Origin: an uncultured Bdellovibrio sp.
GTDB lineage: Bacteria > Bdellovibrionota > UBA1018
DNA length: 64,000 bases
Assembly (NCBI GenBank): GCA_964490895.1
Contig: CAZBEI010000065.1
Coordinates: 1,192 to 65,191, forward strand
Direction of reading: 5' to 3'
Position 1 is the first letter of the stretch. Every line of letters begins with the position of its first letter. The notes below the pieces were generated by a model. It was not told the DNA's origin and ran no database searches. It saw nothing but the letters and a program-made list of their open reading frames with translations. Positions 10,185 to 42,619 of the stretch are shown piece by piece. Made by a program: the position numbers and the translations under genes.

Positions 10185-10200
10185 TGGCATTGATTGTGCA
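10185..10200 (+). promoter_or_regulatory. Sigma-54 (-24/-12) promoter-like motif TGGCAT-N5-GTGCA upstream of uspA
   Basis: GG and GC separated by the canonical 10 nt. Lies 37 bp upstream of the ATG at 10237. Confidence 0.45.
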
Positions 10201-10236
10201 TACTCTTCTTAAAAATACGGGAGGTGTTAAGACAAT

Positions 10237-26261: not shown

Positions 26262-27179
26262 GTGCATATCACTTTGGAAGAAGCCCGCACTTTGGATGCT
26301 GTTGTTCAGTTCGGAAGTTTTTCGAAAGCAGCACAAAATCTTCGCAAGAGTCATTCTGCTATCATCTATTCGCTGAAATCCTTAGAAACACAAACGGGTT
26401 TGCGCATTCTCGACAGAACGCAGTATCGAACCACGCTCACGCCCACAGGGAAACGCGTGTGGGAGCAGTGTAAAAAACTTTTGTCTTCTGAGCAAGATTT
26501 TACACACCTTTGCCGGAATCTTGGCTCTGGATGGGAGCCCTACCTAAAAATTGTGGTCGACGGACTCATTCCATTCGATTCCATTTTGCAGGCGCTCGAA
26601 AAACTAAGCCAACAGAAAGTTCCCACCAAAATCATGCTCTATGAGGAGTTTCTAGGTGGCGTGGAAAACAGTTTTATAGAAAATAGTGCGGATGTTATGA
26701 TCTCGGTGATTCCTCCAGAAAAAACTGTGCTTGAACCCATAAAACTTTGCCCGATCAGTAGCTACTTGGTCGTGAACAAGGAGCACTTCTTGGCTAAAAC
26801 ACGCAAGCGCCTGACGATTAGCCAGCTGCAAGAGTATCCCTTTCTCACCGTACGAGGATCGGATACAAGACTCAATCTCACAACCTCTGCCTTCGAGGAA
26901 TCATCGGCTTATCACCTGAACAATTTTCAGTCGAAGAAAGCAGCCATTCTCAAAGGGCTAGGTTTTGGTTGGCTACCGGAGTATTTGATCCATAAGGAAC
27001 TTGCAAAGAAAGAGCTTAAAATTGTTTACTGGGAGAAAAGCAGCGCGCACACTTACTTTCCTCATATCTATTGTCGAGGAACAAAGCATTTAGGTAAGGC
27101 TGGCTTGTCGTTTCTAAATGCATTGCTTTCATTTCAGCAGGTACCGAACTGTGAAGAATGTGCTCTTAAAACAAAATAA
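26262..27179 (+). CDS. LysR-family transcriptional regulator (divergent from hmgA-hppD-phhA)
   Basis: N-terminal HTH (LDAVVQFGSFSKAAQNLRKSHSAIIYSLKSLE). GTG start with RBS AAGAGGA. Confidence 0.8.
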   Translation: MHITLEEARTLDAVVQFGSFSKAAQNLRKSHSAIIYSLKSLETQTGLRILDRTQYRTTLTPTGKRVWEQCKKLLSSEQDFTHLCRNLGSGWEPYLKIVVDGLIPFDSILQALEKLSQQKVPTKIMLYEEFLGGVENSFIENSADVMISVIPPEKTVLEPIKLCPISSYLVVNKEHFLAKTRKRLTISQLQEYPFLTVRGSDTRLNLTTSAFEESSAYHLNNFQSKKAAILKGLGFGWLPEYLIHKELAKKELKIVYWEKSSAHTYFPHIYCRGTKHLGKAGLSFLNALLSFQQVPNCEECALKTK

Positions 27180-27267
27180 AAAAGCAAGATTGTGACAAAA
27201 AGGTATAATTAGAGAATTATTGTCTCATTTTTTTTCCAACATTAGAAACTTTATGCTTAATCCCACC

Positions 27268-27283
27268 TGGCATATTATTTGCA
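27268..27283 (+). promoter_or_regulatory. Sigma-54 promoter-like motif TGGCAT-N5-TTGCA (inside repeated element copy A)
   Basis: Near-consensus -24/-12. A TTGTGACAA palindrome lies ~75 bp upstream (27189-27197). Confidence 0.5.
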
Positions 27284-27301
27284 TCAGCACTGTACTTAAA
27301 A

Positions 27302-28057
27302 ATGCAAAAAAAAGTGGCCTCTAAAATTTTTGTAGTCAGTGCTATTTTTTTCCTAAGCGCCAATGCGACTGCACTCGAACAAACTGTCACACAAGGCATC
27401 AAGTCACTGGATTGCCAGAAAGAAATTTTAAGTCAACTCTCTCAGTGGGGAACCAAAAATGAGTGGATGACTCTGAAGCGTCCATTTGAAGACGAAAATT
27501 CCTACTTGAGTCCCACTCACGAAATCGGCGTTTGGGTCAAAATTCAATTTCAAACCCCACATGCACTTACCGCTTATCGAATGAATACAGAGCAAACAGA
27601 AAAAATCAATTGGGACAAAAAATGCCAAGCAACTTCTCAAATTCATGACACAAAAGGGGCGGAAGAAAAAAAAGACCCGGATTTATTGAGTGACAGTGAC
27701 TTAAAAGTCTTGATCAAAGATAATCCTTCTGGAATTTTATTTGTTTGGACCCCTCACACCCCTTGCTCGATCAAAGGGCTGAGAAATATCCAAATGGCTG
27801 CAAAAACACTCGGAGTTAAACTTTTTCCACTTTTACACCCCGCCTCCAACAGAAAGAGGGCTTGGCAAATGATCAGAGAGCTGCAACTTCCAGTCGATCA
27901 GTTGAGAGAAGTGGCGTCTTTAGAGCTTATTTTGAGAGGACTCATCAATCATGCTCCATCGATGATTGTGTTTTCGAAGGGAGAAATTAAAACTCCGATC
28001 TTGCGAGGCCCACACAGTTCTCTTAGATACCTCAACTTTGTAAAAGAAACCCTATGA
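27302..28057 (+). CDS. Secreted hypothetical protein
   Basis: Signal peptide; no recognised domain. Starts with MQKK, shared with the duplicated element. Confidence 0.45.
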   Translation: MQKKVASKIFVVSAIFFLSANATALEQTVTQGIKSLDCQKEILSQLSQWGTKNEWMTLKRPFEDENSYLSPTHEIGVWVKIQFQTPHALTAYRMNTEQTEKINWDKKCQATSQIHDTKGAEEKKDPDLLSDSDLKVLIKDNPSGILFVWTPHTPCSIKGLRNIQMAAKTLGVKLFPLLHPASNRKRAWQMIRELQLPVDQLREVASLELILRGLINHAPSMIVFSKGEIKTPILRGPHSSLRYLNFVKETL

Positions 28058-28067
28058 GGACAGGAAC

Positions 28068-29510
28068 TTGACAATGAAAAATATTCTCTCATGCTTGATA
28101 GTAGGGTTATTTTTTCTAAAACCCTCTCTAGCATCTTTGCCAAGCTATTGTTCTTTGCCTTCAGTGTATACAAAAATTTTACATACTTTTCCACGAGACG
28201 GTAAATTTTTAGACAATATTGCTTGGCTTTCAAATCCTGTCCCCAATTCTGTAGGACTTCCCTATCTCATTAGTTTTAGTCAGTTCATGGAAGATGGCAA
28301 AGACAAAAACTATATTCTCAATTTAGCCTCTGGAAAAACAGTCACTATTCCGGGTCAAGGAGATCCTGTGGTCACTCCAGACGGAAAATTTTTGACTATT
28401 CCAGGAGCTCACTCTGGAGAAAGCCAACTCCTTATTTTTTTAACTAAAACTGTTTTGAGGACTTTATTAAAAAAAGAGGCCGGCATTAATAGTCTCGAAA
28501 AAATAAAGCCCCTTTTTGTAGATCCAAAAGTCGAGGGGTATTGCCAGTCCTTTGGAGTATTGCCAAGCAAAAAAGGCACAATCCGATACAGACTCCTACA
28601 CACAGAAGGAGGCGGGCCCTTTCAGCTCACGGAGTACGAAGTTCATGAAAAAAACGGAAAATTTGAATTTAAAAATCTCGGGGCCATGCAGGTCTGTAGC
28701 AACATGCCGAATTCAGTCCACGACAATGGTACCGCGATTCTCTCAAAAGATGGACGCTATGTCTCTCTCTATGACTCTCAAGCACAGTCTACAAAGATTT
28801 TTGAACTCGAAGTAGCACAGGGAAAATGCTCTTGCAAAGAAGCCGTGGACTTCGGGTTTCCAACAGGAAGAGTGGATTTTAGCTACGATGGGAAAAAAAT
28901 TACTTTTCATGTCAATTTCTTAGGTATTGATTATGCAGACAATTATGTTTTAAAAGTCCCAGCATCTAAAATAAAAGACGTTTTTGTGGCCGAGCTTGAT
29001 TATAAAAATGGAAAAATAACCGGCATCAAAAAAATGGCGCGCTTGACAGCTTCTCAAAAAATGGGCGAAGGCTCTTATTTTCCGACTTTTTTGCCCAATG
29101 GAAAAATCTTTTATGTCTATCAAGACAACAGTGACCAACAGGACCGAAAATATCGACTTGAAGTCGTAGACTCTCGAAGTGCTAAGTATGAGGAAAATTT
29201 ATTTTCAAAACTCGACTCAGAAAAAGAGCAGGCTCGGTTTTTATCCAAAGTAGCATTGGGAAGACTTTGGTCCAAAGCCTGCGAACAAAAAATACTCACC
29301 CCCATTCAGTCAGCTCTGTACGCCATGAGTTTAGATACAAAATCCTGTCAATCTGTTGTGCGAGGTTCTTGGTCAAAATATAAATCTCAGATTTTAGTTG
29401 AGTTAACAGCTAACCGGAATGAAACGAGCTCAAGACTTAAAAAAATCAAGGACTCTGTTTTTAGACGTAAGATTTTTCAAGAGACACTCTTGGCGGCTTG
29501 TAGGCAATGA
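28068..29510 (+). CDS. Secreted protein with TolB/WD40-like beta-propeller repeats
   Basis: Signal peptide. Repeated DG-hydrophobic blades (TPDGKFLTIPG, SKDGRYVSLYD, SYDGKKITFHV, LPNGKIFYVYQD). Confidence 0.5.
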   Translation: MTMKNILSCLIVGLFFLKPSLASLPSYCSLPSVYTKILHTFPRDGKFLDNIAWLSNPVPNSVGLPYLISFSQFMEDGKDKNYILNLASGKTVTIPGQGDPVVTPDGKFLTIPGAHSGESQLLIFLTKTVLRTLLKKEAGINSLEKIKPLFVDPKVEGYCQSFGVLPSKKGTIRYRLLHTEGGGPFQLTEYEVHEKNGKFEFKNLGAMQVCSNMPNSVHDNGTAILSKDGRYVSLYDSQAQSTKIFELEVAQGKCSCKEAVDFGFPTGRVDFSYDGKKITFHVNFLGIDYADNYVLKVPASKIKDVFVAELDYKNGKITGIKKMARLTASQKMGEGSYFPTFLPNGKIFYVYQDNSDQQDRKYRLEVVDSRSAKYEENLFSKLDSEKEQARFLSKVALGRLWSKACEQKILTPIQSALYAMSLDTKSCQSVVRGSWSKYKSQILVELTANRNETSSRLKKIKDSVFRRKIFQETLLAACRQ

Positions 29511-29624
29511 GTGTGCTCAAAACACTATCCATATAAAAAGCAAGATTGTGACAAAAAAGCATTTTTTTGAGAATTATTGTCCCGTTTTTTTAAAACGTTA
29601 GAAACTTTAATGCTTAACATTGCC

Positions 29625-29640
29625 TGGCCTATTACTTGCA
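29625..29640 (+). promoter_or_regulatory. Sigma-54 promoter-like motif TGGCCT-N5-TTGCA (inside repeated element copy B) upstream of the Mo-enzyme operon
   Basis: Near-consensus -24/-12, 17 bp upstream of the ATG at 29657. The TTGTGACAA palindrome lies ~75 bp upstream (29544-29552). Confidence 0.5.
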
Positions 29641-29656
29641 CCAATAAAGACTACAA

Positions 29657-30466
29657 ATGCAAAAAAGAGGGGCTGAGAGCCAAGAAATTGACTTCGACTG
29701 TGTAGATTTTCATCGCCGATGGGAAAGAGCACGTATTTCTGCTCTTAAAAAAGCATTAGATTTTATCCCACAGGCTCTAGATACGGAAAAAGAGTTTCAA
29801 CTTCTCACACTGGTAAGACCAGAATCTGAAAACCTTGTGTTAAAGCTTGTGTTTGACCATAGTTTTCAACTTGGAAAAAGTTTATCCCTGTTTTTGAAAC
29901 GCCCCATCACACTGAAAGAAATCAAAAAAATCATAACCTCATCAAACCAATCTTGTCACCAGGGAGTTTGGCAAGATAAAGGCTTTGCTTTTGTATTAGA
30001 ACGAGAGGGATGTGATTCACAAAAGAAAACAGGAAAGTTTTACTGCCAGTACTCTAGGGAAGCTATGGATGGTTTGACTATGGGGGCGTGCAAAGACGAG
30101 GGGTATGCACGCCACAAAAGCGTAGGGCATGGAGATGAAAACTGTGTTGATGTTTTCTACAGTGAAAATGCGAGATCCAATCAGTTTGGAGGCATTGCAA
30201 AAGAAATATCTGAAAAACTAGAGTTTCTGCAAGAAGAGTTTGAAAAAATGAACTTGAACCTCGTTTTTGATGGAATTCGAGAAGGTACGTTATTTTACCA
30301 ACTTACCTCTAAAAATAGCTCTCTGTGTGGAAGTTCTGAAGACTTATTTCACCGTACCATTCAAGAAAGAATTAAAAAAGAATTCCCACTCCTTATCGTT
30401 CAAAATAGAACACCAAAATCTGTATTGGCAAAAAACAAAAATCACGAGGTGTATCCCCATGCCTAA
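29657..30466 (+). CDS. Hypothetical Cys/His-rich cytoplasmic protein translationally coupled to the molybdoenzyme alpha subunit
   Basis: 269 aa, no signal peptide. Its stop overlaps the alpha start (ATGCCTAA). Start codon uncertain. Confidence 0.4.
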   Translation: MQKRGAESQEIDFDCVDFHRRWERARISALKKALDFIPQALDTEKEFQLLTLVRPESENLVLKLVFDHSFQLGKSLSLFLKRPITLKEIKKIITSSNQSCHQGVWQDKGFAFVLEREGCDSQKKTGKFYCQYSREAMDGLTMGACKDEGYARHKSVGHGDENCVDVFYSENARSNQFGGIAKEISEKLEFLQEEFEKMNLNLVFDGIREGTLFYQLTSKNSSLCGSSEDLFHRTIQERIKKEFPLLIVQNRTPKSVLAKNKNHEVYPHA

Positions 30467-33400
30467 CGCAATTAAAAGAAGAGATTTTCTAAAAGGAATG
30501 GCTTATGTGGGCTCTTGGGGAGTGGCTTCGTCATGGATGCTCTCCCATAAACTCATGGCTGCTCCCATTCGTTACTTTAAACCCACCCACATCGAAAATC
30601 CTCTCGCTTTTTATCCGAATCGAGACTGGGAAAAAGTCTATCGTAATATTTTTGAACCAGACTCCTCTTTTGTTTTTTTATGCGCCCCCAATGACACCCA
30701 CAACTGCCTCCTAAAAGCTTATGTAAAAAATGGAGTCATTATCCGAATTGGACCCAGTTATGGTTATGGAAAAGCAACGGACCTCTATGGCAATCAGGCT
30801 TCTCATCGGTGGGATCCGAGAATTTGTCAAAAGGGGCTCGCTCTTGTTCGCAGAATATATGGAGACCGTAGAGTAAAAGCTCCCATGGTGAGGCGAGGGT
30901 TTAAGCAGTGGGTAGAAGACGGATTTCCAAGAGATCCATTGACTGGAAAACCAGATCCTAAATATTTCGAGCGCGGAAAAGACAAGTGGTTAAGGATCGA
31001 CTGGGAGGGAGCCTATGATTTGTCAGCTCGTACGATTGAGAATATCAGCAAAACTTATTCTGGAGAAAGTGGAGCAAAATTGCTTAAAGCACAAGGATAT
31101 GACCCCAGCATGATTGAGGCAACAGAAGGTGCGGGGACTCAGACTATTAAGCTTCGGGGTGGGATGGCATTCTTGGGTGCAACACGGATTTTTGGGCTTT
31201 ATCGATTTGCCAATATGCTCGCACTCATGGATGCAAAACAGCGTGGAGTTTCGCCTGATCAAGCCATCGGTGCAAGAGGTTGGGACAGTTATAGCTGGCA
31301 CACGGATCTCCCTCCTGGGCATCCCATGGTTACAGGGGCACAGACCAATGACTTTGATCTTTTTTCTACAGAATATTCAAAATTAATCATTGCCTGGGGA
31401 ATGAATTGGATCACCACTAAAATGCCAGACTCCCATTGGCTAACAGAGGCGCGGTTGAAGGGAGCAAAGACTGTTGCTGTAACGGTAGAATACAGTGCTA
31501 CGGGATCAAAGTGTGACGATGTCATTATTATCCGTCCTGGAACAGATCCTGCATTTGCCCTGGGAGTTGCGCAAGTTATTATTTCTAAAAAATTGTATGA
31601 CGAAGACTTTGTGCAAAAAAATACGGATTTACCTTTTTTAATTCGCTTAGACACGCTCCAACCTCTCCGCCCAGAAGAAGTGTTTGCAAACTATAAAGCC
31701 ACTCCTATCGAAACCATGAGCTTTATCAAGAAAGGCGAAAAAACATTACCAGGGAATTTACAAAAAAATCAATTTGCAAATGAGAACATGCAAAAAGATT
31801 TTAGTCCGTACGTTATTTTTGATAAAAAAATAAAAAAATTAGTCCCGGTAACACGAGACCAATGGGGACAGACATTCTCTCAAACCGAAATGAAGCCAGA
31901 CCTAAGAGCCCATCGAAAAATAAAACTCATTAACGGCAATGAAGTCGAAGTCAGAACGGTTTTCCATTTGACAGAGGAATATCTCAATAAAAACTTTACA
32001 CCCAAACTCACCGCTCTTGTCACAGGAACCCCAGAAAAAACCATCGTCAATCTTGCACTGGATATTGCAAAAAATAAGGAAAAAACTCTTTTTGCCTGCG
32101 GAATGGGCCCCAATCAGTTTTTTAACTCAGATCTAAAAGACAGGGCTATTTTTTTAGTGGCTGCTCTGACTCGAAATGTTGGCTTTCCGGGTGGAAACGT
32201 GGGGAGCTATGCCGGAAATTATAGAGCGGCACTTTTTGGAGGGATACCACAATTTGCAACAGAAGATCCCTTTCACCTCCAACTTGAAAAAGGAGGCAAA
32301 ATTACAGTAAAAAAATATCTCCATTATGAGTCACTCCATTATTTTAACTATGGAGACAGACCCTTAAGACTTGGCAACAAACTTTTTACAGGACATGGCC
32401 ACTTGCCCACTCCTACAAAAATGATGTGGTTAAATAACTCTAACTCAGTGATCGGTAACATTAAATGGCATTTCGATGTCGTCAATAATACTCTTCCAAA
32501 GCTAGAGTTTATTGCTTACTCAGATTGGTGGTGGACTGGATCCTGCGAGTACTCAGACATTGTATATGGTGTAGATAGTTGGGCTGAGTTCAAGGTTCCA
32601 GACATGTGTGGCTCTTGCACGAACCCTTTTGTTCAGATTTATCCGAGAACTCCCGTTCCAAGAATTTTTAATACCAAAAGTGATATTGAAGTGATTGCTG
32701 GTGTATCCAAACGATTGGGCGAGATTTTGAACGAACCTCGCATGAAAGACATGTGGAAGTTTGTTTCCGATGGTGACGTCGACGAATATCTGCAGAGAGT
32801 GATTGATCATTCGTTTACGCTAAAAGGATATGACTTTAAAACTCTAGAAAAAAATGCCAAAGAAGGGATTCCAGCTTTACTCAATACAAGGACTTACCCG
32901 AGAGTTTCCTCCTTTGAGCAAGCAAAAAACGAACAACCTTGGCACACAAAATCTGGTCGGCTAGAGTTTTATCGATTCGAATCGGACTTCATTGATAGCG
33001 GAGAAAACATGGTTGTTTACCGAGAGCCCATTGACTCCACTCATTATGAACCTAACGTGATTGTAGCTCATCCTCATACAGCCATTCGGCCAAAAACTCC
33101 AAAAGATTATGGACTCGATCCAAAGGATCTTTCGGTGGAGGCAAGACAGGTCAGAAATGTTCTGAAAACGCCAGAAGAGTTGATTCGATCTCAACATCCG
33201 CTGAAATTAAAATTATACTCTCACGTTTACCACACTCCTAAGTACCGACATGGAGCTCATTCGACCCCTGTCGATACTGATTATACTTCGGTTTGGTTTG
33301 GTCCATTTGGGGACGTGTATCGACACGACAAGAGAATGCCTGCCAACTCTGAAGGCTACGTTGACATCAATCCGCTCGATGCAAAGGCTTTAGGCGTAGA

Positions 33401-33941
33401 AGATGGAGATTATGTCTATATTGACGCTGACCCAGAAGATCGGCCTTTTAGGGGTTGGAAAGAAAATACACTGGAGTACAAAGTCGCACGGCTGCTTTTG
33501 AGAGCTCGTTATTACCCGGGCACACCCCGTGGAATCGCGCGCACTTGGCACAACATGTATGGTGCGACGTTGGGCAGCGTAAAAGCTCACGAAACGAGGC
33601 CAGACGGTTTGGCAAAAAATACTGAAACCAACTATCAGTCTATGTACCGTTATGGGAGCCATCAAAGTGCCACACGAGCATGGCTCAGGCCCACTCTCAT
33701 GACAGAATCCCTTGTCCACAAGGGCATGTTTGGCCAAGGAATTGAAAAGGGTTTTGCTCCTGATATTCATTGCCCAGTGGGTGCTCCCAGAGAAGCTTTT
33801 GTGAAAATCACTAAAGCAGAATTAGGGGGTATGGATGGAAAGGGAATGTGGAGGCCCGCCTCACTTGGCTTCAGACCTACCTACGAAAACAAAGCAATGA
33901 AAGAGTATCTAAAGGGTCATTTCTTAAAGAAAAAATCTTAG
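30459..33941 (+). CDS. Type II DMSO-reductase-family molybdoenzyme alpha subunit, periplasmic nitrate reductase / nitrite oxidoreductase-like (NarG/NxrA-type), Tat-exported
   Basis: Start at MPNAIKRRDFLKG (twin-arginine motif) with RBS GAGGTG; the track ORF begins upstream at 30267. About 1160 aa. The first Fe-S (FS0) motif C-x3-D-x3-C aligns to NarG H-x3-C-x3-C next to YVKNG. The Mo-ligand Asp region TTKMPDSHWLTEARLKGAKTVAV parallels NarG. Confidence 0.85.
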   Translation: MPNAIKRRDFLKGMAYVGSWGVASSWMLSHKLMAAPIRYFKPTHIENPLAFYPNRDWEKVYRNIFEPDSSFVFLCAPNDTHNCLLKAYVKNGVIIRIGPSYGYGKATDLYGNQASHRWDPRICQKGLALVRRIYGDRRVKAPMVRRGFKQWVEDGFPRDPLTGKPDPKYFERGKDKWLRIDWEGAYDLSARTIENISKTYSGESGAKLLKAQGYDPSMIEATEGAGTQTIKLRGGMAFLGATRIFGLYRFANMLALMDAKQRGVSPDQAIGARGWDSYSWHTDLPPGHPMVTGAQTNDFDLFSTEYSKLIIAWGMNWITTKMPDSHWLTEARLKGAKTVAVTVEYSATGSKCDDVIIIRPGTDPAFALGVAQVIISKKLYDEDFVQKNTDLPFLIRLDTLQPLRPEEVFANYKATPIETMSFIKKGEKTLPGNLQKNQFANENMQKDFSPYVIFDKKIKKLVPVTRDQWGQTFSQTEMKPDLRAHRKIKLINGNEVEVRTVFHLTEEYLNKNFTPKLTALVTGTPEKTIVNLALDIAKNKEKTLFACGMGPNQFFNSDLKDRAIFLVAALTRNVGFPGGNVGSYAGNYRAALFGGIPQFATEDPFHLQLEKGGKITVKKYLHYESLHYFNYGDRPLRLGNKLFTGHGHLPTPTKMMWLNNSNSVIGNIKWHFDVVNNTLPKLEFIAYSDWWWTGSCEYSDIVYGVDSWAEFKVPDMCGSCTNPFVQIYPRTPVPRIFNTKSDIEVIAGVSKRLGEILNEPRMKDMWKFVSDGDVDEYLQRVIDHSFTLKGYDFKTLEKNAKEGIPALLNTRTYPRVSSFEQAKNEQPWHTKSGRLEFYRFESDFIDSGENMVVYREPIDSTHYEPNVIVAHPHTAIRPKTPKDYGLDPKDLSVEARQVRNVLKTPEELIRSQHPLKLKLYSHVYHTPKYRHGAHSTPVDTDYTSVWFGPFGDVYRHDKRMPANSEGYVDINPLDAKALGVEDGDYVYIDADPEDRPFRGWKENTLEYKVARLLLRARYYPGTPRGIARTWHNMYGATLGSVKAHETRPDGLAKNTETNYQSMYRYGSHQSATRAWLRPTLMTESLVHKGMFGQGIEKGFAPDIHCPVGAPREAFVKITKAELGGMDGKGMWRPASLGFRPTYENKAMKEYLKGHFLKKKS

Positions 33942-33949
33942 GAGAGTTT

Positions 33950-35080
33950 ATGTCAAAAGTAAAAAATTGGCACTTGGGACGTGAGATGGAATATGTTTAC
34001 GAAGAACATCGCCCCAAAAAACAATGGTCCATAGTATTCGATTTGAATAAATGCATTGCCTGCCAAACTTGTACACTGGCTTGTAAAACCACCTGGACGA
34101 GTGGAAAAGGCCAGGAATACATGTTTTGGAATAATGTCGAAACAAAGCCCTATGGGAGCTATCCACTGGCATGGGATGTGCGAGTTTTAGAAAAACTAGG
34201 TCAACAAGAGTGGGGGAAAAAAGAACCTTATTACGGGAAGACGATTTTTGAGGGAGCCCTGCCGACCGAAAGGGCCGTACACTTTCATCCCAAAGACGAA
34301 GACTGGATGTATCCCAATCAGGGCGAAGATGATTGCTTAGGAAATGTAACAAGGGGTGACTCTATTACTCTTCCGCACGACAAGTGGTTTTTTTATTTAC
34401 CTAGAACTTGTGCTCATTGTACTTATCCCGCTTGTCTCGCTGCATGCCCCAGAAAAGCAATTTATAAAAGAGACGAAGACGGAATTGTTTTGATCGATCA
34501 ATCCAGGTGCAAAGGCTATGGAGAATGCGTTCGAGCCTGCCCATACAAAAAATCAATGTACAACCCTTATACAAGAGTGAGCGAAAAATGTATCGGTTGC
34601 TATCCCGCAGTTGAGAAGGGCTATCAACCCATGTGTGTGCAAAACTGTATTGGGAAAATTAGAATCATGGGGTTTGTAAACCCTCCCTGGAAAGTGAGAG
34701 AGAATAATCCAATTGATTATTTGATTCACAAAAAAGAATTAGCCCTGCCTTACTATCCACAACTGGGATTAGAGCCTAATATCTATTACATCCCACCCAT
34801 CCATGCTGATAAAACATACCTCACTCAAATGTTTGGACCCAATGTCGAACACTCAATAGAACAATATAAAAAAATAAAGAACGACATTACAACACAGGGT
34901 CTTTTGGTTTTGATGGGTAGTACGGATCGAATTATTCATAGTTTTGAAGTTAAAAACAATACGGCCTATGGATATGACGAAAAGGGAGACGAAATTGTCC
35001 ATGTTCCTATCACAGAACCACTTTATGAGAGAGAAAGCTTTGATGCCAAACGTCAGGTTGTCAGGAACAATACGCCCTAA
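33950..35080 (+). CDS. Molybdoenzyme beta subunit (four Fe-S clusters; NarH/NxrB-like)
   Basis: Start at MSKVKNW with RBS GGAGAG. Cys clusters CIACQTCTLAC, CAHCTYPACLAACP, CKGYGECVRACP, CIGCYP..C. Confidence 0.8.
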   Translation: MSKVKNWHLGREMEYVYEEHRPKKQWSIVFDLNKCIACQTCTLACKTTWTSGKGQEYMFWNNVETKPYGSYPLAWDVRVLEKLGQQEWGKKEPYYGKTIFEGALPTERAVHFHPKDEDWMYPNQGEDDCLGNVTRGDSITLPHDKWFFYLPRTCAHCTYPACLAACPRKAIYKRDEDGIVLIDQSRCKGYGECVRACPYKKSMYNPYTRVSEKCIGCYPAVEKGYQPMCVQNCIGKIRIMGFVNPPWKVRENNPIDYLIHKKELALPYYPQLGLEPNIYYIPPIHADKTYLTQMFGPNVEHSIEQYKKIKNDITTQGLLVLMGSTDRIIHSFEVKNNTAYGYDEKGDEIVHVPITEPLYERESFDAKRQVVRNNTP

Positions 35081-35093: not shown

Positions 35094-35954
35094 ATGAAAA
35101 TAAAAAGAAACTTATTTTTACTTTTTTTTATATTAAATTTATGTCCCTCAATTGATGCAGCCGAACTTATTTCTAAGTTTGTGAAGGCAGACTTCTCCCA
35201 TTTTCCAATGGGCGATGACATCTGGAAGGGAGCACGCGAAGAAACAATTAAACTCATGGCTCAACCCATGGCCATCCCAAGACCCAAAGAAACAAACACA
35301 TCCGAAATTTATGTCAAAACCTTAAATGATGGAAAATGGATTGCCTTTCGAATCAGGTGGAAAGACACAGAGAAAAACGAAGCAGGTAGGTTGGGTCAGT
35401 TTTCGGATGCACTTGCTCTTGAGTTTCCAGTCAAAAGTAACCTTTCTCCACCTCCGATTTTCATGGGTGCCAAAGATAACCCTGTTCATGTTTTTCATTG
35501 GCGCGCTCAGTATCAGGCAGACAAAGAACGCGGAAAACCCACGATGAAGGATCTTTATCCCAATATGAATGTCGACATTTATCCTATGGAATTTCAGGAC
35601 CAAGGCTACCTCATGGGATTAACCGAAGAAAAAAGAGAAGTCTTCTCACATGGGATGGCAGCAGGAAATCCTCAGTCGTACAGAAAAATCCATGGTGTGG
35701 ATGAGATTTTTGCTGAAGGTTTTGGGAGTAGCTCCGTCATTGAAAACGTTGAGTCAATTGCACAGGGGGCTTGGAAAAATAATGAATGGGATCTCGTTTT
35801 GTCTAGATCGCTTAAGCGCGAAAACGGATCTATTTTAGAGTCTGGAAAAGGGAGCTTTGTAGGTTTTGCTGTTTGGCAGGGAGGCAAAGACGAAGTGGGA
35901 TCTAGAAAATCAGTCACCATGAATTGGACACCCCTTAAGATTCAAGCAGAATAG
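35094..35954 (+). CDS. Gamma subunit, EbdC/NxrC-like periplasmic haem-b protein (ethylbenzene-dehydrogenase gamma family)
   Basis: Signal peptide, 286 aa. Conserved FPMGDDIWKGA..W.A.Y pattern of type II gamma subunits. Gene order matches alpha-beta-gamma-delta. Confidence 0.7.
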   Translation: MKIKRNLFLLFFILNLCPSIDAAELISKFVKADFSHFPMGDDIWKGAREETIKLMAQPMAIPRPKETNTSEIYVKTLNDGKWIAFRIRWKDTEKNEAGRLGQFSDALALEFPVKSNLSPPPIFMGAKDNPVHVFHWRAQYQADKERGKPTMKDLYPNMNVDIYPMEFQDQGYLMGLTEEKREVFSHGMAAGNPQSYRKIHGVDEIFAEGFGSSSVIENVESIAQGAWKNNEWDLVLSRSLKRENGSILESGKGSFVGFAVWQGGKDEVGSRKSVTMNWTPLKIQAE

Positions 35955-35965: not shown

Positions 35966-36649
35966 ATGGAAAATAATTTTGCAAATAAAGTCTCACAGTT
36001 TGTCTTGGCTTCACTTATTACGTCTTACCCAGACACAGCTTTTCCCGATCATCTGTCAAAAATATCTCAAACTGAGCTTGATTGTAGTGAACTCATGGCA
36101 ATGCTCCACTCCTATTGCGAAAGCCAAATCAAATTAGATAACCTCAGGTCTGATTATATTGACATTTTTGATCGAGGAAAAAATCTAAACCCTCTTTATG
36201 AAACAGAATATGAGAGAGAGCGAACACAAGTAAAAGCCACAACGCTTTCAGATATTGCTGGATTTTATAAGGCGTTTGGATTTGACTTCGATGGCACAAG
36301 CTATCCAGAAATGGTGGACCATGTGTCTGTTGAGCTTGAGTTTTATGCCTTGTTGCTCATGAAACAAGCTTATCTTGAAGAAAATAAAACGACAGAGGGT
36401 GTGTCCATAACATTAGATGCTAGGAAAAAATTTCTAAAAGATCACTTGGGTCGCTTTGTTGGTTCCATTGCTGAACGGCCAGGGGTCAAAGAAAACCATT
36501 TTTATTCTCGTGTTTTTGATTGGTGTAAAGATTTGATTCAAACAGAATGCCAAGAACTTGGGGTCAAAGTGATTCCAGCCCAGTGGTTTTCAGTATCACA
36601 AAAGCCGCAAGATTCTGGCGAAATGTGCTGCGGGGATCATAAAAATTGA
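35966..36649 (+). CDS. TorD/NarJ-family redox-enzyme maturation chaperone (delta subunit)
   Basis: 227 aa, all-helical. The DIFDRG..YETEYE..EL.FY..L pattern is typical of the NarJ/TorD family. Confidence 0.65.
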   Translation: MENNFANKVSQFVLASLITSYPDTAFPDHLSKISQTELDCSELMAMLHSYCESQIKLDNLRSDYIDIFDRGKNLNPLYETEYERERTQVKATTLSDIAGFYKAFGFDFDGTSYPEMVDHVSVELEFYALLLMKQAYLEENKTTEGVSITLDARKKFLKDHLGRFVGSIAERPGVKENHFYSRVFDWCKDLIQTECQELGVKVIPAQWFSVSQKPQDSGEMCCGDHKN

Positions 36650-37629
36650 CAAAATTACAAGATCCTTTTGATAGGAAATTTTCTTATCTCCGACTTTCTG
36701 TTACAGATGTCTGTAATTTTAGGTGCGTTTATTGCCTCCCCAAGGGCTATCAAAAACCAAAAAAATCTTTTACTCCTTTAACATTAGTTGAAATCAAAAA
36801 TCTCGTGCTCGCATTTTCTGAGCTAGGTATCACCAAAGTGAGGCTGACCGGTGGAGAGCCCACAACAAGACATGACATTGTCGAAATAGCTCGAGTGATT
36901 TCAGAAATCCAAGGAATAAAAAAAATCGCACTGACCACCAATGGTTATCGTTTAAGTGAACTCGTTCCCCACCTTAAAGCAACGGGTCTGTCCTCCCTCA
37001 ATGTCAGTGTGGACAGCTTAGATCCTGAAAATTTTTCTAGTATTACGGGCAAGCCCTTGCTTCATAAAGTTCTCGACGGGATAAGTCGCGCAATTCAAGT
37101 CGGAATAGCATCAGTAAAAATAAACGTAGTTTATTTGAAAAAAATAAATAGCGCAGAACTTGAGCGATTTTTAGACTGGGCCAAAGAAACCCCTGTCGCT
37201 ATTCGCTTTATTGAGCTCATGGAGACTGGAAAAAATAAAGTATTATTTCAATCCCATCACCTCTCATTAGGAGAAATTCAATTTTACCTTTTAAAGTCGG
37301 GCTGGAGTTTAATCCCAAAAGAAACTGACAGTGGGCCCGCCTGGGAGTACTGCCACCCAGAGTATAGGGGTCAAATTGGAGTCATTGCTCCCTACTCAAA
37401 AGATTTTTGCCAGTCTTGCAACCGGCTACGCATTTCTTCTCAAGGCGAACTCAAACTCTGTCTTTTTGGTGAAAAAAATTACTCTTTGCGCCACCTCCTC
37501 CAATCGCAAAAATATAAAGAAGAGCTCAAATCAACAATCCAACATTTGATCTATCAGAAACCCATTTCACATTTCTTACACGAGGGAAAATATGGAAACA
37601 CATGGAATCTATCCTCCATCGGAGGATAA
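36646..37629 (+). CDS. moaA: GTP 3',8-cyclase MoaA (radical SAM)
   Basis: CNFRCVYC radical-SAM motif and a C-terminal CQSCNRLR..G cluster. Confidence 0.85.
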   Translation: MTKLQDPFDRKFSYLRLSVTDVCNFRCVYCLPKGYQKPKKSFTPLTLVEIKNLVLAFSELGITKVRLTGGEPTTRHDIVEIARVISEIQGIKKIALTTNGYRLSELVPHLKATGLSSLNVSVDSLDPENFSSITGKPLLHKVLDGISRAIQVGIASVKINVVYLKKINSAELERFLDWAKETPVAIRFIELMETGKNKVLFQSHHLSLGEIQFYLLKSGWSLIPKETDSGPAWEYCHPEYRGQIGVIAPYSKDFCQSCNRLRISSQGELKLCLFGEKNYSLRHLLQSQKYKEELKSTIQHLIYQKPISHFLHEGKYGNTWNLSSIGG

Positions 37630-38602
37630 CTCTTCGCAAATGGTGGATGTTAGCTCAAAAGACATCACCTTACGCAAAGCGCGTGCAACAGGAAGAATTC
37701 AAGTTTCTCTAGAAATCATAGAAAAAATCAAATCAAACACAATTCCAAAGGGAGATGTTTTTAGAGTGGCAGAAGTCGCTGGCATTCTTGCTGCCAAAAA
37801 AACTCCAGAGATCATCCCCCTTTGCCATCCCATCCTTATTGAGTCTGTTCGAATCCATTGCGAAATAAAAACGCCACATGCGATAGAAGTGACCTCCGAA
37901 GTCATAGCCCAAGCCAAAACAGGTGTTGAAATGGAAGCTTTGGTGGCCGTGCAAGCGGCACTGCTGTGCATTTATGACATGACAAAGGGGCTTTATCCCT
38001 ACGCTACCATCGAAGACGTTCATGTTGTATCTAAAACGGGTGGAAAATCGGAACATTGGCCAAACCCTAAAAACAACACACAACAATTAGATATAAAAGT
38101 TGGGATCCTGACCGTGAGTGACCGTTGTTCAAAAGGCAAACAAGAAGACAAATCCGGAAAAACAATTGAGTGTTTTTTTACTGAAACAAACTCTACTCTC
38201 ATCGGGAGTCTCATCGTACCAGACGATGTGGGCAAAATTCAAAGTGCCATCAAAAATTTAGCATTTGAGGAAAAAGCAGACCTCATTATCACAACAGGTG
38301 GGACTGGACTCGGCCCTCGAGATCAAACTCCTTTAGCGCTACAGACGCTTTGGACAAAGCCCTTGCCAGGAGTTGGAGAACTCTTAAGGAGTAAAGGTTC
38401 GCTACACACTCCACTTTCTTGGCTGAGCCAAATGGAGGCTGGATTGATCGAAAATACCCTGGTGGTCTCCCTACCAGGCAGCCCAAAGGCTGTAAAAGAG
38501 TCCCTAGATATTTTGAGCCCCTTACTGGTGCATATTTTTGACATGATTCGCGGAGAGAATCATGAAGGTAAAATGATTCGCGGAGAGAATCATGAAACTT
38601 AA
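37592..38602 (+). CDS. moaC: Bifunctional MoaC (cyclic pyranopterin monophosphate synthase) and MogA/MoaB-like molybdopterin adenylyltransferase fusion
   Basis: N-terminal half has MVDVSSKDITLRKARA..EIIPLCHP (MoaC). C-terminal half has GILTVSDR..IITTGGTGLGPRD (MogA/MoaB). Confidence 0.75.
   Translation: METHGIYPPSEDNSSQMVDVSSKDITLRKARATGRIQVSLEIIEKIKSNTIPKGDVFRVAEVAGILAAKKTPEIIPLCHPILIESVRIHCEIKTPHAIEVTSEVIAQAKTGVEMEALVAVQAALLCIYDMTKGLYPYATIEDVHVVSKTGGKSEHWPNPKNNTQQLDIKVGILTVSDRCSKGKQEDKSGKTIECFFTETNSTLIGSLIVPDDVGKIQSAIKNLAFEEKADLIITTGGTGLGPRDQTPLALQTLWTKPLPGVGELLRSKGSLHTPLSWLSQMEAGLIENTLVVSLPGSPKAVKESLDILSPLLVHIFDMIRGENHEGKMIRGENHET
38543..38602. repeat. 30-bp tandem duplication (atgattcgcggagagaatcatgaa + 6 nt) at the moaC-mogA / transporter junction
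   Basis: Two adjacent 30-bp units with 26/30 identity. Each carries GGAGAG-N4-ATG. The first gives the mini-ORF MKVK; the second is the transporter start. Confidence 0.8.
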
Positions 38603-39683
38603 ATGGCTATCCAATCAATTTCTTGGAGCCTTTTCTGACGGAGCGATTTTGATTCCTATGATCGCTGTGCTCTCTGCAAAGTCTGGATATAATATTAAAA
38701 CTCTACTCTTCAGTGCAGGGATTATTTATTGTGTGAGTGGAGCTTATTTTAAAATCCCAATGGCTGTGCAACCTCTAAAATCACTGGTGATCACGGCTCT
38801 TGCAATTCAAGCAAGTCTCACCGAAATTAGGCTAGTGGGAGCATTGATTGGACTACTTTGCCTGTTTTTGACTCTCTTTGATGCCAATGCACTTGCTAAA
38901 AAAGTACCCATTGAGCTGATACACGGGCTCCAAGTAGCATTGGGTGTTTTACTTATTTTACAAGGGTTTAGAGCTATCCACACAGAAGTGCTTGTTGTTT
39001 TAGTTGTTTTAGTTATTATTTACTATTTCTTCGAATTTCCGATTTTAGGCGTATTGGCTTGCCTTGGAATTTTATTCTCTTTCACACGCACACTACCCAT
39101 CCCTGGCAGCACAATCAATATAAACGGAAGTGAGTTTAGATTTTCAGTTATTATTTCACTTTTACTTCCGCAAATAATTCTGACACTCAGCAATTCAGTC
39201 ATTGGAACGTATCACGTTTCACAGTACTATTTTCCAAAAGGGGCAAGCAAAGTAACTCCCAAACGACTTTTAACTTCGATTGGGATTGGAAACATTTTGA
39301 CAGCCTTATTTGCGGGTCTCCCCTTTTGTCATGGCTCTGGTGGAATTACGGCACATTACTTGGGTGGAGCCAGACATTACATTTCAAACTTTATTGTAGG
39401 CTTTTTTCTAATTGGAGTATTCATTTTTCTCCAATTTTCTAAAAATTATTTTACCTTTCACTATCCTCCCATTCTTTTGTCAAGCTTGCTCATATCAGTA
39501 GGAGTTTTTCATATCAAATTAGCAAAAGAGACTTGGATTAAAAAAGAAAATGGCAAACCAACCCTCATGCTGATGGCTCTTACTGCACTGACAACACAAA
39601 ACTTACTCTACGCACTGGGGATTGGAATATTTCTAGAACTCATCAGTAAACGGATCTATAAATTGACAGGAGCACGCTCATGA
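38592..39683 (+). CDS. Polytopic membrane transporter embedded in the Moco cluster (possible molybdate/sulfate-family permease)
   Basis: 363 aa, about 10 TM helices. Position between mogA and moeA suggests molybdate uptake; family not securely identified. Confidence 0.5.
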   Translation: MKLKWLSNQFLGAFSDGAILIPMIAVLSAKSGYNIKTLLFSAGIIYCVSGAYFKIPMAVQPLKSLVITALAIQASLTEIRLVGALIGLLCLFLTLFDANALAKKVPIELIHGLQVALGVLLILQGFRAIHTEVLVVLVVLVIIYYFFEFPILGVLACLGILFSFTRTLPIPGSTININGSEFRFSVIISLLLPQIILTLSNSVIGTYHVSQYYFPKGASKVTPKRLLTSIGIGNILTALFAGLPFCHGSGGITAHYLGGARHYISNFIVGFFLIGVFIFLQFSKNYFTFHYPPILLSSLLISVGVFHIKLAKETWIKKENGKPTLMLMALTALTTQNLLYALGIGIFLELISKRIYKLTGARS

Positions 39684-40939
39684 TCACTTATGCACAAGCT
39701 TTAGAGATCATCTATGAAGCTGGAAATAAAAAAATATTAGGAACAGAAAAAATTTCAATAGAACTATCCATCGGAAGAGTCTTAGCGGAATCCATTTATA
39801 GCCCAGAGGATCTGCCAGGATTTGACAACTCAGCGATGGATGGTTTTTGTGTTGTCTCAAAAGAGACTCTCACCGCAAGTCAAGCTCACCCCATTGAGCT
39901 TTCAATTTTAGATACAATTGCAGCAGGGGACTCCAAGAAATTTGATCCAAGCACATTGGCTGAAAATCTTATCTGCTTCGAAATCATGACCGGAGCTCCT
40001 CTTCCTCATACGCAGTTTGATGCAGTGGTTAAGGTAGAAGATGTAAAGCGGTTGGGAAATAAAATCATATTGACCCGACCCATTCTCAGCAAAGAAAATG
40101 TTCGACATCAAGGTTCCGATACTCAGATGGGAACTTTAATCCTTGGATCTGGGACTCCACTCTCGCACCAACACTTACTCATGCTCGCAGCACTGGGCAT
40201 AAGCGAAGTTTCTGTATTTAAAAAGCTAAAACTAGCCCTTATTTCAACTGGAAAAGAACTGGCTCATTATACCGAAAAGGAGTTAAAACCAGGACAAATT
40301 AGAAATTCTACAGCGCCCTATTTATTGAGCCTACTAAACTCTCTGGGGTTTAACGTGACCTATATAGGAAACATCCAAGATGATCCGGGTTACTTCAAAA
40401 AAAAATGTGACAAAATTATTTTTGATGATTTTGATATTCTTCTTACAACGGGTGCTGTCTCTGTAGGGAAATTTGATTTCATCAAAGAAGTATTAACTCA
40501 AATGAAGACAGAAATTCTATTTCACAAATCTGCTATTCGACCTGGCAAGCCTATTCTGTTTGGCGAATTTTGCCACCTTGCCAGTCATCACTCTGTGTTT
40601 TTTGGGATGCCTGGAAATCCAATCTCAACGGCAGTTGGGGTGAGGTTTTTTTTAATTCCCTACCTGCGTTGTATCACAAAACAACCCATGGAGGCGCCTC
40701 TTTTGATTGAGCTTGAAAACGAAGTGAGAAAACCCAAAGACCTGCGCTGTTTTTATAAAGCTAAACTCACTATTGTCTCCTCAAAAGCTAAGGTGACTGT
40801 TTTACCTGGACAGGCCTCGTTTATGGTCAGCCCACTCTTAGAGTCAAGCGCTTGGGCTGTTCTTCCAGATAGCAAAGAGGTGTTCGAGCCTGGAGAAAAA
40901 ATCGATGTTTATCCATTATTACCCCAAACCTATTTTTAA
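39680..40939 (+). CDS. moeA: Molybdopterin molybdotransferase MoeA
   Basis: 419 aa. PGFDNSAMDGFCV and GGVSVG blocks. Confidence 0.85.
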   Translation: MITYAQALEIIYEAGNKKILGTEKISIELSIGRVLAESIYSPEDLPGFDNSAMDGFCVVSKETLTASQAHPIELSILDTIAAGDSKKFDPSTLAENLICFEIMTGAPLPHTQFDAVVKVEDVKRLGNKIILTRPILSKENVRHQGSDTQMGTLILGSGTPLSHQHLLMLAALGISEVSVFKKLKLALISTGKELAHYTEKELKPGQIRNSTAPYLLSLLNSLGFNVTYIGNIQDDPGYFKKKCDKIIFDDFDILLTTGAVSVGKFDFIKEVLTQMKTEILFHKSAIRPGKPILFGEFCHLASHHSVFFGMPGNPISTAVGVRFFLIPYLRCITKQPMEAPLLIELENEVRKPKDLRCFYKAKLTIVSSKAKVTVLPGQASFMVSPLLESSAWAVLPDSKEVFEPGEKIDVYPLLPQTYF

Positions 40940-40959
40940 ATTAAGCCAAGGAAAATAAA

Positions 40960-41226
40960 ATGATTAAAATAAAATTTCAATTTTTTGGTCTGTTAAAAAA
41001 GCAAATTCCAGCTCCTTTTATCGAAATGGAAGTCGAAGAAGGAATAAAACTAAACCAACTCGTCACAAGGCTTCTCAATGTATTAAAAAACGAAGGACAC
41101 TGCTTACTCAATATCTCTACTCTTGACGAGTGCGCTATTGCCAACGAATCAAGAGTACTAGATAAAAATGAAGCAATCCATGAGAGCTGCACTCTTTCAC
41201 TTTTGCCGCCAGTTTGTGGAGGTTAA
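40960..41226 (+). CDS. moaD: Molybdopterin synthase sulfur-carrier subunit MoaD-like
   Basis: 88 aa ending in Gly-Gly (VCGG). Confidence 0.65.
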   Translation: MIKIKFQFFGLLKKQIPAPFIEMEVEEGIKLNQLVTRLLNVLKNEGHCLLNISTLDECAIANESRVLDKNEAIHESCTLSLLPPVCGG

Positions 41227-41273
41227 GTATTTTGTTTAAATATAAAATAAAAATAACAAAAAAGCCGATAGAA

Positions 41274-41732
41274 ATGAGTAAAATCCTAGAGGAACTTCAA
41301 GACCCACGGAGTGGGGCCTCGACGCTCTTTGTTGGCTCTGTTCGCAATCAGAATCTCGGGCGAGTTGTAAAATCCGTTCACTACGAAGCTTTTGTTCCAC
41401 TTGCACTTAAAACCCTTGTTTTGATTTGTAAAAATGCAAAAAAACAGTTTAGCCCCAATAAAGAACTTCTTAAAATCGCCATCGTTCATCGGTTAGGAAA
41501 ACTCAGTGTTGGTGAAATGAGTGTCGCAATTGGCGTGGCAACGAAACATCGCGACGAGTCGTACAAAATATCGAGATTCATTATTGAAGAACTAAAAAAA
41601 CAGGTCCCCATTTGGAAAAAAGAACATTATGTAGACGGAGAAAGCGAGTGGCTTAAAGGACATGCACTTTGCAACAAAAACCATCGGCGTCGTGCTCATG
41701 GGCGGTCAATCGAGCAGAATGAAGTCTCCTAA
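41274..41732 (+). CDS. moaE: Molybdopterin synthase catalytic subunit MoaE
   Basis: Start taken at MSKILEEL; the track ORF starts at 41214. GASTLFVGSVRN and VAIGVATKHR blocks. Confidence 0.7.
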   Translation: MSKILEELQDPRSGASTLFVGSVRNQNLGRVVKSVHYEAFVPLALKTLVLICKNAKKQFSPNKELLKIAIVHRLGKLSVGEMSVAIGVATKHRDESYKISRFIIEELKKQVPIWKKEHYVDGESEWLKGHALCNKNHRRRAHGRSIEQNEVS

Positions 41733-42270
41733 GGAGGATCTCATCTTTCAAGGAAAAAAATGGATTGACCACCAACTCAGCACTCTTACAAAGACCCTCA
41801 AAGGGATTCCATCCTTTGTCGTTGTCAGTGGCAAACCAAAAGGCTACCCCTCAGTCAAAGATATCAAAAAAAACCTGGGACCGCTGGGTGGGATATATTC
41901 TGTGCTCAGAAATTTTTACCCTATTCTAAAGAATAGCTCTATTCTCTTTATTCCAATTGACATGCCATTTCTTTCCGAAAAATCACTCAAAAAATTAATT
42001 CAAGCTCCTGTGACTCAAAATATTGATTACATAGGTTTTAAATCATACGAACTTCCTTTTTTATTAAAAATATCTGAAAAAACAGTCAAATTGGCACAGT
42101 CCTTTTGTGATGACTCAATCTGCTCTCGCGATCGCTCGATCAAAAAATTTCTGGCGTGTTTGAATTCGCGTATCATTGGTGTTCCAAAACAACTGCAGTT
42201 TGAGTTCTGCAATATCAACACTCCCGAGGAATGGAAGCTACTTTATGAACATTCGATTATCTCCGAATGA
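41662..42270 (+). CDS. mobA: Molybdenum cofactor guanylyltransferase MobA
   Basis: N-terminal GVVLMGGQSSRM nucleotide-binding motif. Confidence 0.7.
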   Translation: MHFATKTIGVVLMGGQSSRMKSPKEDLIFQGKKWIDHQLSTLTKTLKGIPSFVVVSGKPKGYPSVKDIKKNLGPLGGIYSVLRNFYPILKNSSILFIPIDMPFLSEKSLKKLIQAPVTQNIDYIGFKSYELPFLLKISEKTVKLAQSFCDDSICSRDRSIKKFLACLNSRIIGVPKQLQFEFCNINTPEEWKLLYEHSIISE

Positions 42271-42619
42271 AATTCGATTTCGTTTTAAAAAAAATGAGCT
42301 TGAGAATCTATTAAAAACAGAAAAAATCGAAGAGACTCTCTTCTTTTCCAGAGAAATGGGTTTTAGTTACTGTGTTTTAATGAAACGAAATATTTCAGAA
42401 ATGGAGCTTTGTTTGTACCCCAATCAATTTGTATTGCATATCCATCCTCATCAGATAGAAACGTTATTAAACCAAGATCTAAGAAAAAACTCAGGTCTGT
42501 TTCAGGAAATTTATAGGGACGAAACAAATGTGTTAAAACTAAAAGTCGAGATTGATTTAGATCCTCACCCTTTTTCGAGGGGGCCTTTCCAGGCCGAAAA
42601 GCCGCCCTCAAGCGAATAG
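42245..42619 (+). CDS. Hypothetical small protein at the end of the Moco operon
   Basis: About 124 aa from MNIRLSPN. No recognised domain. Its 3' end overlaps the convergent moeB by 55 bp. Confidence 0.3.
   Translation: MNIRLSPNEIRFRFKKNELENLLKTEKIEETLFFSREMGFSYCVLMKRNISEMELCLYPNQFVLHIHPHQIETLLNQDLRKNSGLFQEIYRDETNVLKLKVEIDLDPHPFSRGPFQAEKPPSSE

Follow-up and report, generated by a model that had tools for sequence, protein, structure and literature searches.

Periplasmic enzymes of the Nxr-like kind occur widely among heterotrophic bacteria, where it is not known whether they oxidize nitrite or reduce nitrate, and the function of the periplasmic nxr-like genes of non-nitrifiers is unknown (PMC9306079). 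Maturation proteins of redox enzymes, among them NarJ/TorD/DmsD, NapD, NapF and FdhE, are small and cytoplasmic, evolve fast, are co-transcribed with a catalytic subunit and serve one enzyme lineage. Both FdhE and NapF are metal proteins rich in Cys. Cys-rich metal sites that tie a helix to a sheet are also found in V4R domains and prokaryotic TRAPPC3 proteins: in DmpR, Zn is held beside the ligand pocket by C151, E172, C177 and C185 (PMC7264223), and in Thor-TRAPPC3 it is held by four Cys (PMC10933270). Here we compare with these systems a gene, which we call X, that lies directly upstream of the alpha-subunit gene of an Nxr/Nar-like enzyme in a 64,000-nucleotide (nt) stretch of DNA from an uncultured Bdellovibrio sp. 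(contig CAZBEI010000065.1, positions 1,192 to 65,191; the window). X is shown by its homologues and gene order to be a translated, selected, clade-specific protein-coding gene, and we tentatively favour the reading that its product is a clade-specific, metal-stabilised, ligand-binding factor for maturation or cofactor handling that acts on alpha before export by twin-arginine translocation (Tat).

29657–30466, plus strand: gene X, ATG start, 269 amino acids (aa); founding member, in the window, of an unannotated family

A word-indexed search with X found only one relative, whereas HMMER, run exhaustively over 1.84 billion representatives, returned 240 homologues at E ≤ 1e-3, 108 of them at E ≤ 1e-30; these counts are of cluster representatives, that is, about 240 clusters at 50% identity. 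Nearly all members are 240–290 aa long and align end to end, and none carries an added domain or fusion; the longer ones have low-complexity sequence or probably mis-called N-termini. Their source annotation is ‘hypothetical protein’ or nothing. Pfam gave zero matches at E ≤ 1 for any of 82 aligned family members, Pfam and NCBIfam gave no family at E ≤ 0.1 for the single X protein, and a PDB sequence search with the protein and with the 82-member profile gave nothing credible, the matches to 6t5l, Mediator and RNase (E 0.2–0.9) being noise. A literature search for a described gene at this position, directly 5′ of alpha, found none. Amino-acid conservation nevertheless persists at 25–38% identity, where nucleotide similarity is lost. 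The original prediction had allowed that the open reading frame (ORF) might be an untranslated leader; 240 homologous cluster representatives, invariant residues throughout and strict synteny instead establish X as a real, conserved gene. One member, P0148, carries a long C-terminal tail rich in His (HEHGHGHGHGHTHEHGH...HPHAHPHAHPH, residues ~320–368) of the Ni/Zn metallochaperone type; since this is only 1 of 165 sequences, the tail is not a family trait.

The genes that accompany X in the window are the following.

30459–33941, plus strand: alpha, 1160 aa, Tat signal, NxrA/NarG-like subunit of the molybdenum-bis(pyranopterin guanine dinucleotide) (Mo-bisPGD) type (closest solved structure Kuenenia NxrA 7b04_B, E = 2.2e-274; TIGR03479, PF00384)
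33950–35080, plus strand: beta, 376 aa, four iron–sulfur (Fe-S) clusters (TIGR03478, E = 1.3e-78; Fer4_11)
35094–35954, plus strand: gamma, 286 aa, EB_dh haem-b type, signal peptide (PF09459, E = 8e-27; TIGR03477)
35966–36649, plus strand: delta, NarJ/TorD-type chaperone, 227 aa (PF02613, E = 3e-16; TIGR03482)
36646–37629, plus strand: moaA, conserved 3′ end of the module (Radical_SAM and Mob_synth_C)

Contigs found through X have the same order, X-alpha-beta-gamma-delta(NarJ-like)-moaA, on one strand in all 10 informative cases (L001, L003, L004, L005, L006/7, L008, L010, L012, L013 and L014), with alpha of 1152–1160 aa, beta of ~377 aa and gamma of the EB_dh type; moaA occupies the same module position in L006, L008, L010 and L014. 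These contigs are assigned to Oligoflexia, Planctomycetota and unbinned metagenomes, and labels of metagenome-assembled genomes among them may be wrong (for example, ‘Bifidobacteriales’). For the reverse test, we collected 80 metagenome loci through their alpha subunit and ran a profile of X against them. Where alpha was at least 67% identical to that of the window and enough upstream DNA was available, X stood directly 5′ in 22 of 25 loci (the 22 amount to ~19 distinct sequences, several metagenome loci being duplicates of one another), whereas about 50 loci with alpha 56–63% identical had none. The hmmsearch result on related loci was bimodal, either below 1e-30 or noise, and a filter-free search found nothing between E = 1e-30 and ~1. 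X is thus a near-obligate marker of one alpha clade and, being present in 22/25 of its loci, a clade-specific module and not an oddity of the window genome. The co-occurrence of X homologues with related nxr/nar-like operons, which the original prediction had singled out as informative, is therefore borne out by 10/10 contigs and 22/25 loci. Its statement that known type II operons lack a gene at this position holds for characterised enzymes and for distant Nxr-like clades (0/~50) and fails for the alpha clade of the window.

Some loci of neighbouring alpha clades, in which X is absent, have Rieske-like and cytochrome-b-like genes upstream. Many X loci, the window not among them, carry a 115–135-aa ORF with a Tat signal between X and alpha (L001 7576–7983, L003 1123–1479 and L004 1922–2269; also L016, L018, L023, L026 and L032). 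This ORF has a weak similarity to the Rieske-like Tat proteins encoded ahead of cytochrome-b-like genes beside distant alphas (L046 276–746, L048 3924–4394); the CxH/CxxH ligands of a cluster are missing from it, and it is possibly the remnant of a degenerate Rieske protein. In one locus with alpha at 58% identity, L082, a Cys-rich ORF (5339–6001) lies upstream of alpha; its N-terminus looks like that of FmdE/FwdE-type proteins, and the ORF possibly encodes another accessory protein in a position analogous to that of X.

Where X meets alpha, the two reading frames run into each other.

30446–30466, plus strand: X-alpha coupling junction, with GAGG, the alpha ATG and the X stop, as read from the sequence

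The X stop codon TAA (30464–30466) and the alpha start ATG (30459–30461) lie within an 8-nt overlap (ATGCCTAA, 30459–30466), and the GAGG Shine-Dalgarno sequence for alpha (30446–30449) is inside X; the alpha product begins MPNAIKRRDFLKG, a twin-arginine signal. The same junction recurs in L006, L010, L001, L003 and L004 as 4-nt overlaps or short gaps; overlaps of 4–8 nt between the X stop and the next start, whether that of alpha or of the small ORF in between, are found in the window and in L001, L003, L004, L006 and L010. From these junctions and the gene order, X appears to open the Nxr/Nar-like operon as its first cistron, transcribed together with alpha and in many cases coupled to it in translation. 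The X product begins MQKRGAESQEIDFDCVDFHRRWERAR, which is hydrophilic, and on inspection no signal peptide was seen, so we take the protein to be cytoplasmic. On these points, a 269-aa ORF with no signal peptide whose stop overlaps the alpha start, the original prediction was accurate. The ATG at 29657 has no obvious Shine-Dalgarno sequence ahead of it; it is the only in-frame start that retains the family-invariant R21, W22 and R26.

The family alignment concentrates its strongest conservation around four Cys.

29954–30145, plus strand: segment with the four invariant Cys, which also holds R152, H153, S155, H158 and D165
29954–29956, plus strand: C100, kept in 81/82 members
30011–30013, plus strand: C119, kept in 82/82
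30044–30046, plus strand: C130, kept in 82/82
30143–30145, plus strand: C163, kept in 82/82

Beyond these, R26, G139, G143, R152, D165 and G206 are present in all 82 members, and R21, W22, R116, R134, E135, S155, G159, P244, P253 and V256 in at least 90% of them; H153 is kept in 72, C224 in 58 and H158 in 49. The Cys/His clusters noticed originally are therefore real in part: of the 7 Cys and 8 His of X, four Cys are essentially invariant, while the other Cys and His are only partly kept. In the topology of the predicted model (below), C100 and C119 flank the beta1/beta2 hairpin, C130 begins a long helix, C163 begins beta4, and H153, H158 and C163 share a beta3-loop-beta4 element. The invariant Cys are spaced x18, x10 and x32, and the series C130-H153-H158-C163 is spaced x22, x4, x4, close to the x20, x4, x7 of DmpR. 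Cys3Glu Zn sites are documented in PoxR and DmpR, which have the same fold, and the Thor-TRAPPC3 structure (7yh3) is rank 3 in the Foldseek search with the X model. It is most likely that the four invariant Cys form an equivalent metal site, which could hold Zn, another metal or Fe-S; by analogy with this fold, such a site would tie the long helix to the beta-sheet and shape an internal cavity.

Fold searches used an AlphaFold model built from a 17-sequence alignment (predicted local distance difference test (pLDDT) 87.3, predicted template-modelling score (pTM) 0.67) and Foldseek against the PDB; an AlphaFold2 model from two sequences was discarded for its pLDDT of 50.8.

29699–30181, plus strand: first domain, residues ~15–175, a helical layer and a four-stranded sheet, TRAPPC3/V4R/H-NOX-like
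30194–30421, plus strand: C-terminal domain, residues ~180–255, alpha-beta-beta-alpha-beta, like the C-terminal domain of Nfu/NifU and that of cation diffusion facilitator (CDF) transporters

The first domain comprises helices, beta104–107, beta111–116, the long helix 127–144, beta148–154 and beta163–169; helices packed on a four-stranded antiparallel sheet are the two-layer arrangement of the V4R/TRAPPC3/H-NOX fold, which encloses a cavity for a ligand. Foldseek matched it to TRAPPC3/Bet3 (including Thorarchaeota TRAPPC3), H-NOX, the V4R domains of PoxR, MopR and DmpR, and the V4R protein MJ1460, all of one ligand-binding superfamily, with probabilities of 0.9–1.0 and TM-scores of only 0.3–0.5, a moderate similarity. 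X is thus predicted to be a two-domain protein, a V4R/TRAPPC3/H-NOX-like ligand-binding domain followed by an Nfu/CDF-like alpha/beta domain.

The modelled likeness to known families is one of fold, with no detectable sequence signature. With the V4R and prokaryotic TRAPPC3 group (DmpR, PoxR, MopR, XylR, MJ1460 and Thor-TRAPPC3) X shares the predicted two-layer fold, a sigma-54 context and a candidate counterpart of the helix-to-sheet metal site (C130...H153...H158...C163 with C100 and C119); yet the V4R family model, PF02830, matched neither the window protein nor the 82 family members at E ≤ 1. Unlike V4R regulators, X has no AAA+ or HTH output domain; it has in addition the Nfu-like domain at its C-terminus and, at its N-terminus, a conserved R-W-x3-R helix. 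Its conserved residues are largely charged (R116, R134, E135, D138, R152, D165), where V4R has a phenol pocket that is hydrophobic, and in the genome X is partnered with a molybdoenzyme, V4R with a catabolic regulon. H-NOX proteins resemble X as small stand-alone proteins in an operon with their target and in a nitrogen-oxide context, but their partners are kinases or cyclases and that of X is an oxidoreductase. Membership of the haem-type H-NOX and of the cluster-type Nfu families was rejected because the defining motifs are missing: helix 127–144 has no conserved His (C130, R134, E135, D138 and G139 stand there instead), the strand motif is R152-H-x-S155 and not Y-x-S-x-R, and Pfam HNOB did not match; the CxxC motif of the Nfu/NifU C-terminal domain (PF01106) is absent, again with no sequence match. 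Metal-binding residues of the kind found in the C-terminal domain of CDF transporters were not identified in X.

Upstream, X lies next to a repeated element.

29535–29656, plus strand: X upstream regulatory region, second copy of a ~135-nt duplicate, 84% identical to the region before 27302
27179–27301: first copy of the ~135-nt element, preceding the gene at 27302 for an unrelated secreted protein
29625–29640, plus strand: sigma-54-type -24/-12 element TGGCCTATTACTTGCA, TGGC-N7-TTGCA with GG/GC spacing

Positions 27179–27318 and 29535–29673 are 84% identical, and the match extends through the start codon across ATG-CAA-AAA (MQK), so that X indeed begins inside a duplicated element and shares its first codons with the gene at 27302, as had been noted. 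The sigma-54 label given to that element is right as far as the -24/-12 pattern goes, since TGGC-N7-TTGCA with sigma-54 spacing is present in the first copy too (27268–27283); each copy also has a sigma-70-like GTGACA-17/18-AATTAT site (in the X copy GTGACA-18-AATTAT, 29548–29577, plus strand); both are therefore candidates for the X promoter. Sigma-54-type sites number 4 in the window, against 1.28 expected. Scanning the upstream regions of X-bearing loci (n = 28 including the window; at most one mismatch, GG/GC intact) placed such elements within ~70 nt of X in 12 of 28, against ~1.7 expected from background, so in the typical case X is the gene nearest the promoter of a putative sigma-54-type unit. 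Upstream FNR boxes were only weakly enriched (4/28 loci). If the sigma-54 sites are used, the X leader would be only ~6–7 nt before the ATG at 29657, and the gene behind the other copy would have a leader of the same length, likewise with no Shine-Dalgarno sequence.

On the maturation reading, X would be made together with the alpha subunit as its clade-specific accessory factor, would have a small molecule as its ligand, the likeliest being an enzyme cofactor or a precursor of one, and would act in the cytoplasm on unfolded or cofactor-less alpha, alongside the NarJ-like delta and before Tat export, by handling the cofactor, holding the subunit or proofreading it. The rate of change agrees with this: among eight operons, mean pairwise identity is 39.5% for X, 46% for delta, 57% for gamma, 72% for alpha and 80% for beta, so that X changes about as fast as the dedicated NarJ-like chaperone, whereas the enzyme subunits change far more slowly. 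In its favour we also count that X has no DNA-binding, enzymatic or fused domain, and that it is the only component of the operon with no assigned maturation role, beside a complete molybdenum-cofactor (Moco) island. X may work as NarJ/TorD, NapD, NapF and FdhE do, a putative role that we hold with reserve, while belonging to none of their families: its predicted fold differs from the all-helical NarJ/TorD/DmsD and from other maturation proteins, and the Pfam and NCBIfam models of NarJ/TorD/DmsD (PF02613), NapD, NapF, FdhE and FdhD did not match it, nor did it resemble any of the known families of Tat-proofreading chaperones. Several observations weigh against such a role. The classical maturation task is already covered by the NarJ-like chaperone (35966–36649), and the V4R/H-NOX superfamily consists mostly of sensors. 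Three loci of the same alpha clade, L015, L027 and L043 (68–78% identical), have no X in the available DNA, so X is dispensable there or encoded elsewhere; in several others 50–180 nt or another gene separates X from alpha, so that coupling is not universal. The spatial clustering of the four Cys, moreover, is predicted from model topology only.

The fold evidence fits an accessory or cofactor-handling role and a sensor alike. The strongest competitor is that X is a stand-alone sensor of nitrite, nitrate, nitric oxide (NO), O2 or a redox-active molecule bound in a V4R/H-NOX-like cavity, which regulates the operon or the enzyme by protein contact. It might, for instance, act in trans on a sigma-54 enhancer-binding protein, as its partner or as an anti-activator, and its expression from the controlled promoter would then provide feedback. 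The closest folds, H-NOX and the V4R domains of the sigma-54 activators DmpR, PoxR and MopR, point that way, as do the sigma-54-type elements just upstream, the constant position of X as first gene of the module and the neighbours typical of NO or anaerobiosis regulons in some loci (CRP/FNR, NnrS, hemerythrin, cytochrome c′ and an FNR box in L006). We nonetheless consider a sensor possible but doubtful: X has no output domain through which to regulate, an enhancer-binding protein (sigma-54 activator) lies near X in only 2–3 of 36 X-bearing loci, a regulator would not usually be coupled so tightly in translation to a highly expressed structural gene, X has neither the proximal His nor the YxSxR of the H-NOX haem signature, and the extra Nfu-like domain is left unexplained. 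A blend of the two ideas, that X is a ligand-gated maturation factor of a new V4R/TRAPPC3-fold class, whose Cys4-metal cavity would bind a Moco intermediate or a nitrogen oxide and license cofactor insertion and Tat export only with the ligand, strikes us as unlikely.

The invariant Cys could alternatively mark X as an Fe-S carrier or scaffold, in which the four would hold a [4Fe-4S] or [2Fe-2S] cluster for delivery to the N-terminal FS0 site of alpha or to beta, compare the NapF-NapA proposal. C224 lies in the loop where Nfu proteins have their CxxC, and an FeS_assembly_P gene lies near the L006 operon; but X has no CxxC, C224 is kept in only 58/82 members, the spacing of the invariant Cys is unlike any ferredoxin-type motif, Cys-rich sites in proteins of this fold serve to bind structural Zn, and there is no sequence match to the NifU, Nfu or NapF models, all of which makes a carrier a rather poor prospect. 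Co-transcription and coupling with alpha, together with a restriction to a single alpha clade that suggests physical co-adaptation, would also be expected of an extra structural subunit that folds onto alpha and hitch-hikes through Tat to the periplasm as beta does. Such a subunit should hardly diverge far faster than alpha, beta and gamma or be missing from three operons with alpha 68–78% identical, and the solved NXR (7b04) is reported to consist of A, B and C only; we regard this as highly improbable. As for an untranslated leader or chance ORF, the lack of an obvious Shine-Dalgarno sequence and a possible transcription start only ~6–7 nt upstream could be cited for it, yet homologues in 240 cluster representatives with invariant residues along the whole length, a confidently predicted fold (pLDDT 87.3) and protein conservation that outlasts nucleotide similarity leave it a negligible chance. 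We continue to prefer, tentatively, a maturation or cofactor-handling factor.

Whichever role applies, X is a new protein family and domain combination within the established role-space of enzyme-specific accessory and sensor proteins: an unannotated family of ~240 clusters, near one-to-one with one Nxr-like enzyme clade, through which the V4R/TRAPPC3/H-NOX fold would gain a new kind of partner, a molybdoenzyme exported by Tat. As a maturation factor, X may be what heterologous production of enzymes of this class has lacked; as a sensor, it would have a ligand that discloses the physiological signal and thereby the direction in which the enzyme works. Were X ligand-gated, sensing and assembly would be combined in one protein, and X would be a genetic marker of a functionally distinct, widespread ‘Nxr-like’ clade in non-nitrifying bacteria.

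The enzyme itself has a Tat-targeted alpha, a four-cluster beta, an EB_dh gamma and a NarJ-like delta, the components of a periplasmic Nxr/Nar-like operon of the type II dimethyl sulfoxide (DMSO)-reductase family; judged by sequence, the window thus encodes a periplasmic complex of that family with its own cofactor supply. Its NCBIfam scores fall under the curated cut-offs, so the enzyme belongs to a divergent clade. Alpha retains the Mo-ligand motif, Y278-x4-D283-x11-Q295-T (compare the patterns quoted in PMC6050957); the motif ends in QT in the alpha clade of the window, in contrast to QN in Nitrospira and QM in Nitrotoga. As QT is invariant in 10 homologues of the clade, it is a possible determinant of substrate or direction. 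Downstream, from 36646 to 43668, lies a complete island for Moco biosynthesis and molybdate uptake, which with the enzyme genes makes a self-contained module. After moaA it contains the following.

37592–38602: moaC-mog fusion
38592–39683: MOT1-type molybdate transporter (eukaryote-like, major facilitator superfamily)
39680–40939: moeA
40960–41226: moaD
41214–41732: moaE
41662–42270: mobA
42565–43668, minus strand: moeB-like gene, divergent moeB/ThiF-rhodanese

On the other side, a LysR-type regulator gene (26262–27179) terminates exactly at the start of the first copy of the duplicated element, and this copy precedes genes for two predicted secreted proteins, 27302–28057 (251 aa) and 28068–29510 (480 aa, with a weak PD40 beta-propeller match). 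Homologues of these secreted proteins are absent from 94 related loci, which places them outside the conserved module; the gene pair at 27302–29510 has the look of an insertion peculiar to this lineage and regulated jointly with the nxr-like operon. Elsewhere, some X operons are flanked by genes for CRP/FNR regulators, NnrS, hemerythrins, cytochrome c′ and DUF2249 proteins (for example, L001 3970–6628, and L006), and L006 has a perfect FNR/Dnr box (TTGATCCAGATCAA, 9934–9947) ~55 nt 5′ of X, which suggests that in some lineages the enzyme is part of an anaerobic or NO-responsive regulon. The sole enhancer-binding protein in the window, an NtrC-type sigma-54 activator (11163–12599; REC, AAA+, HTH_8), is encoded ~18 kb from X after a tandem-Usp protein (10184–11152), and another sigma-54-like site (10040–10055, minus strand) lies ahead of a divergent operon.

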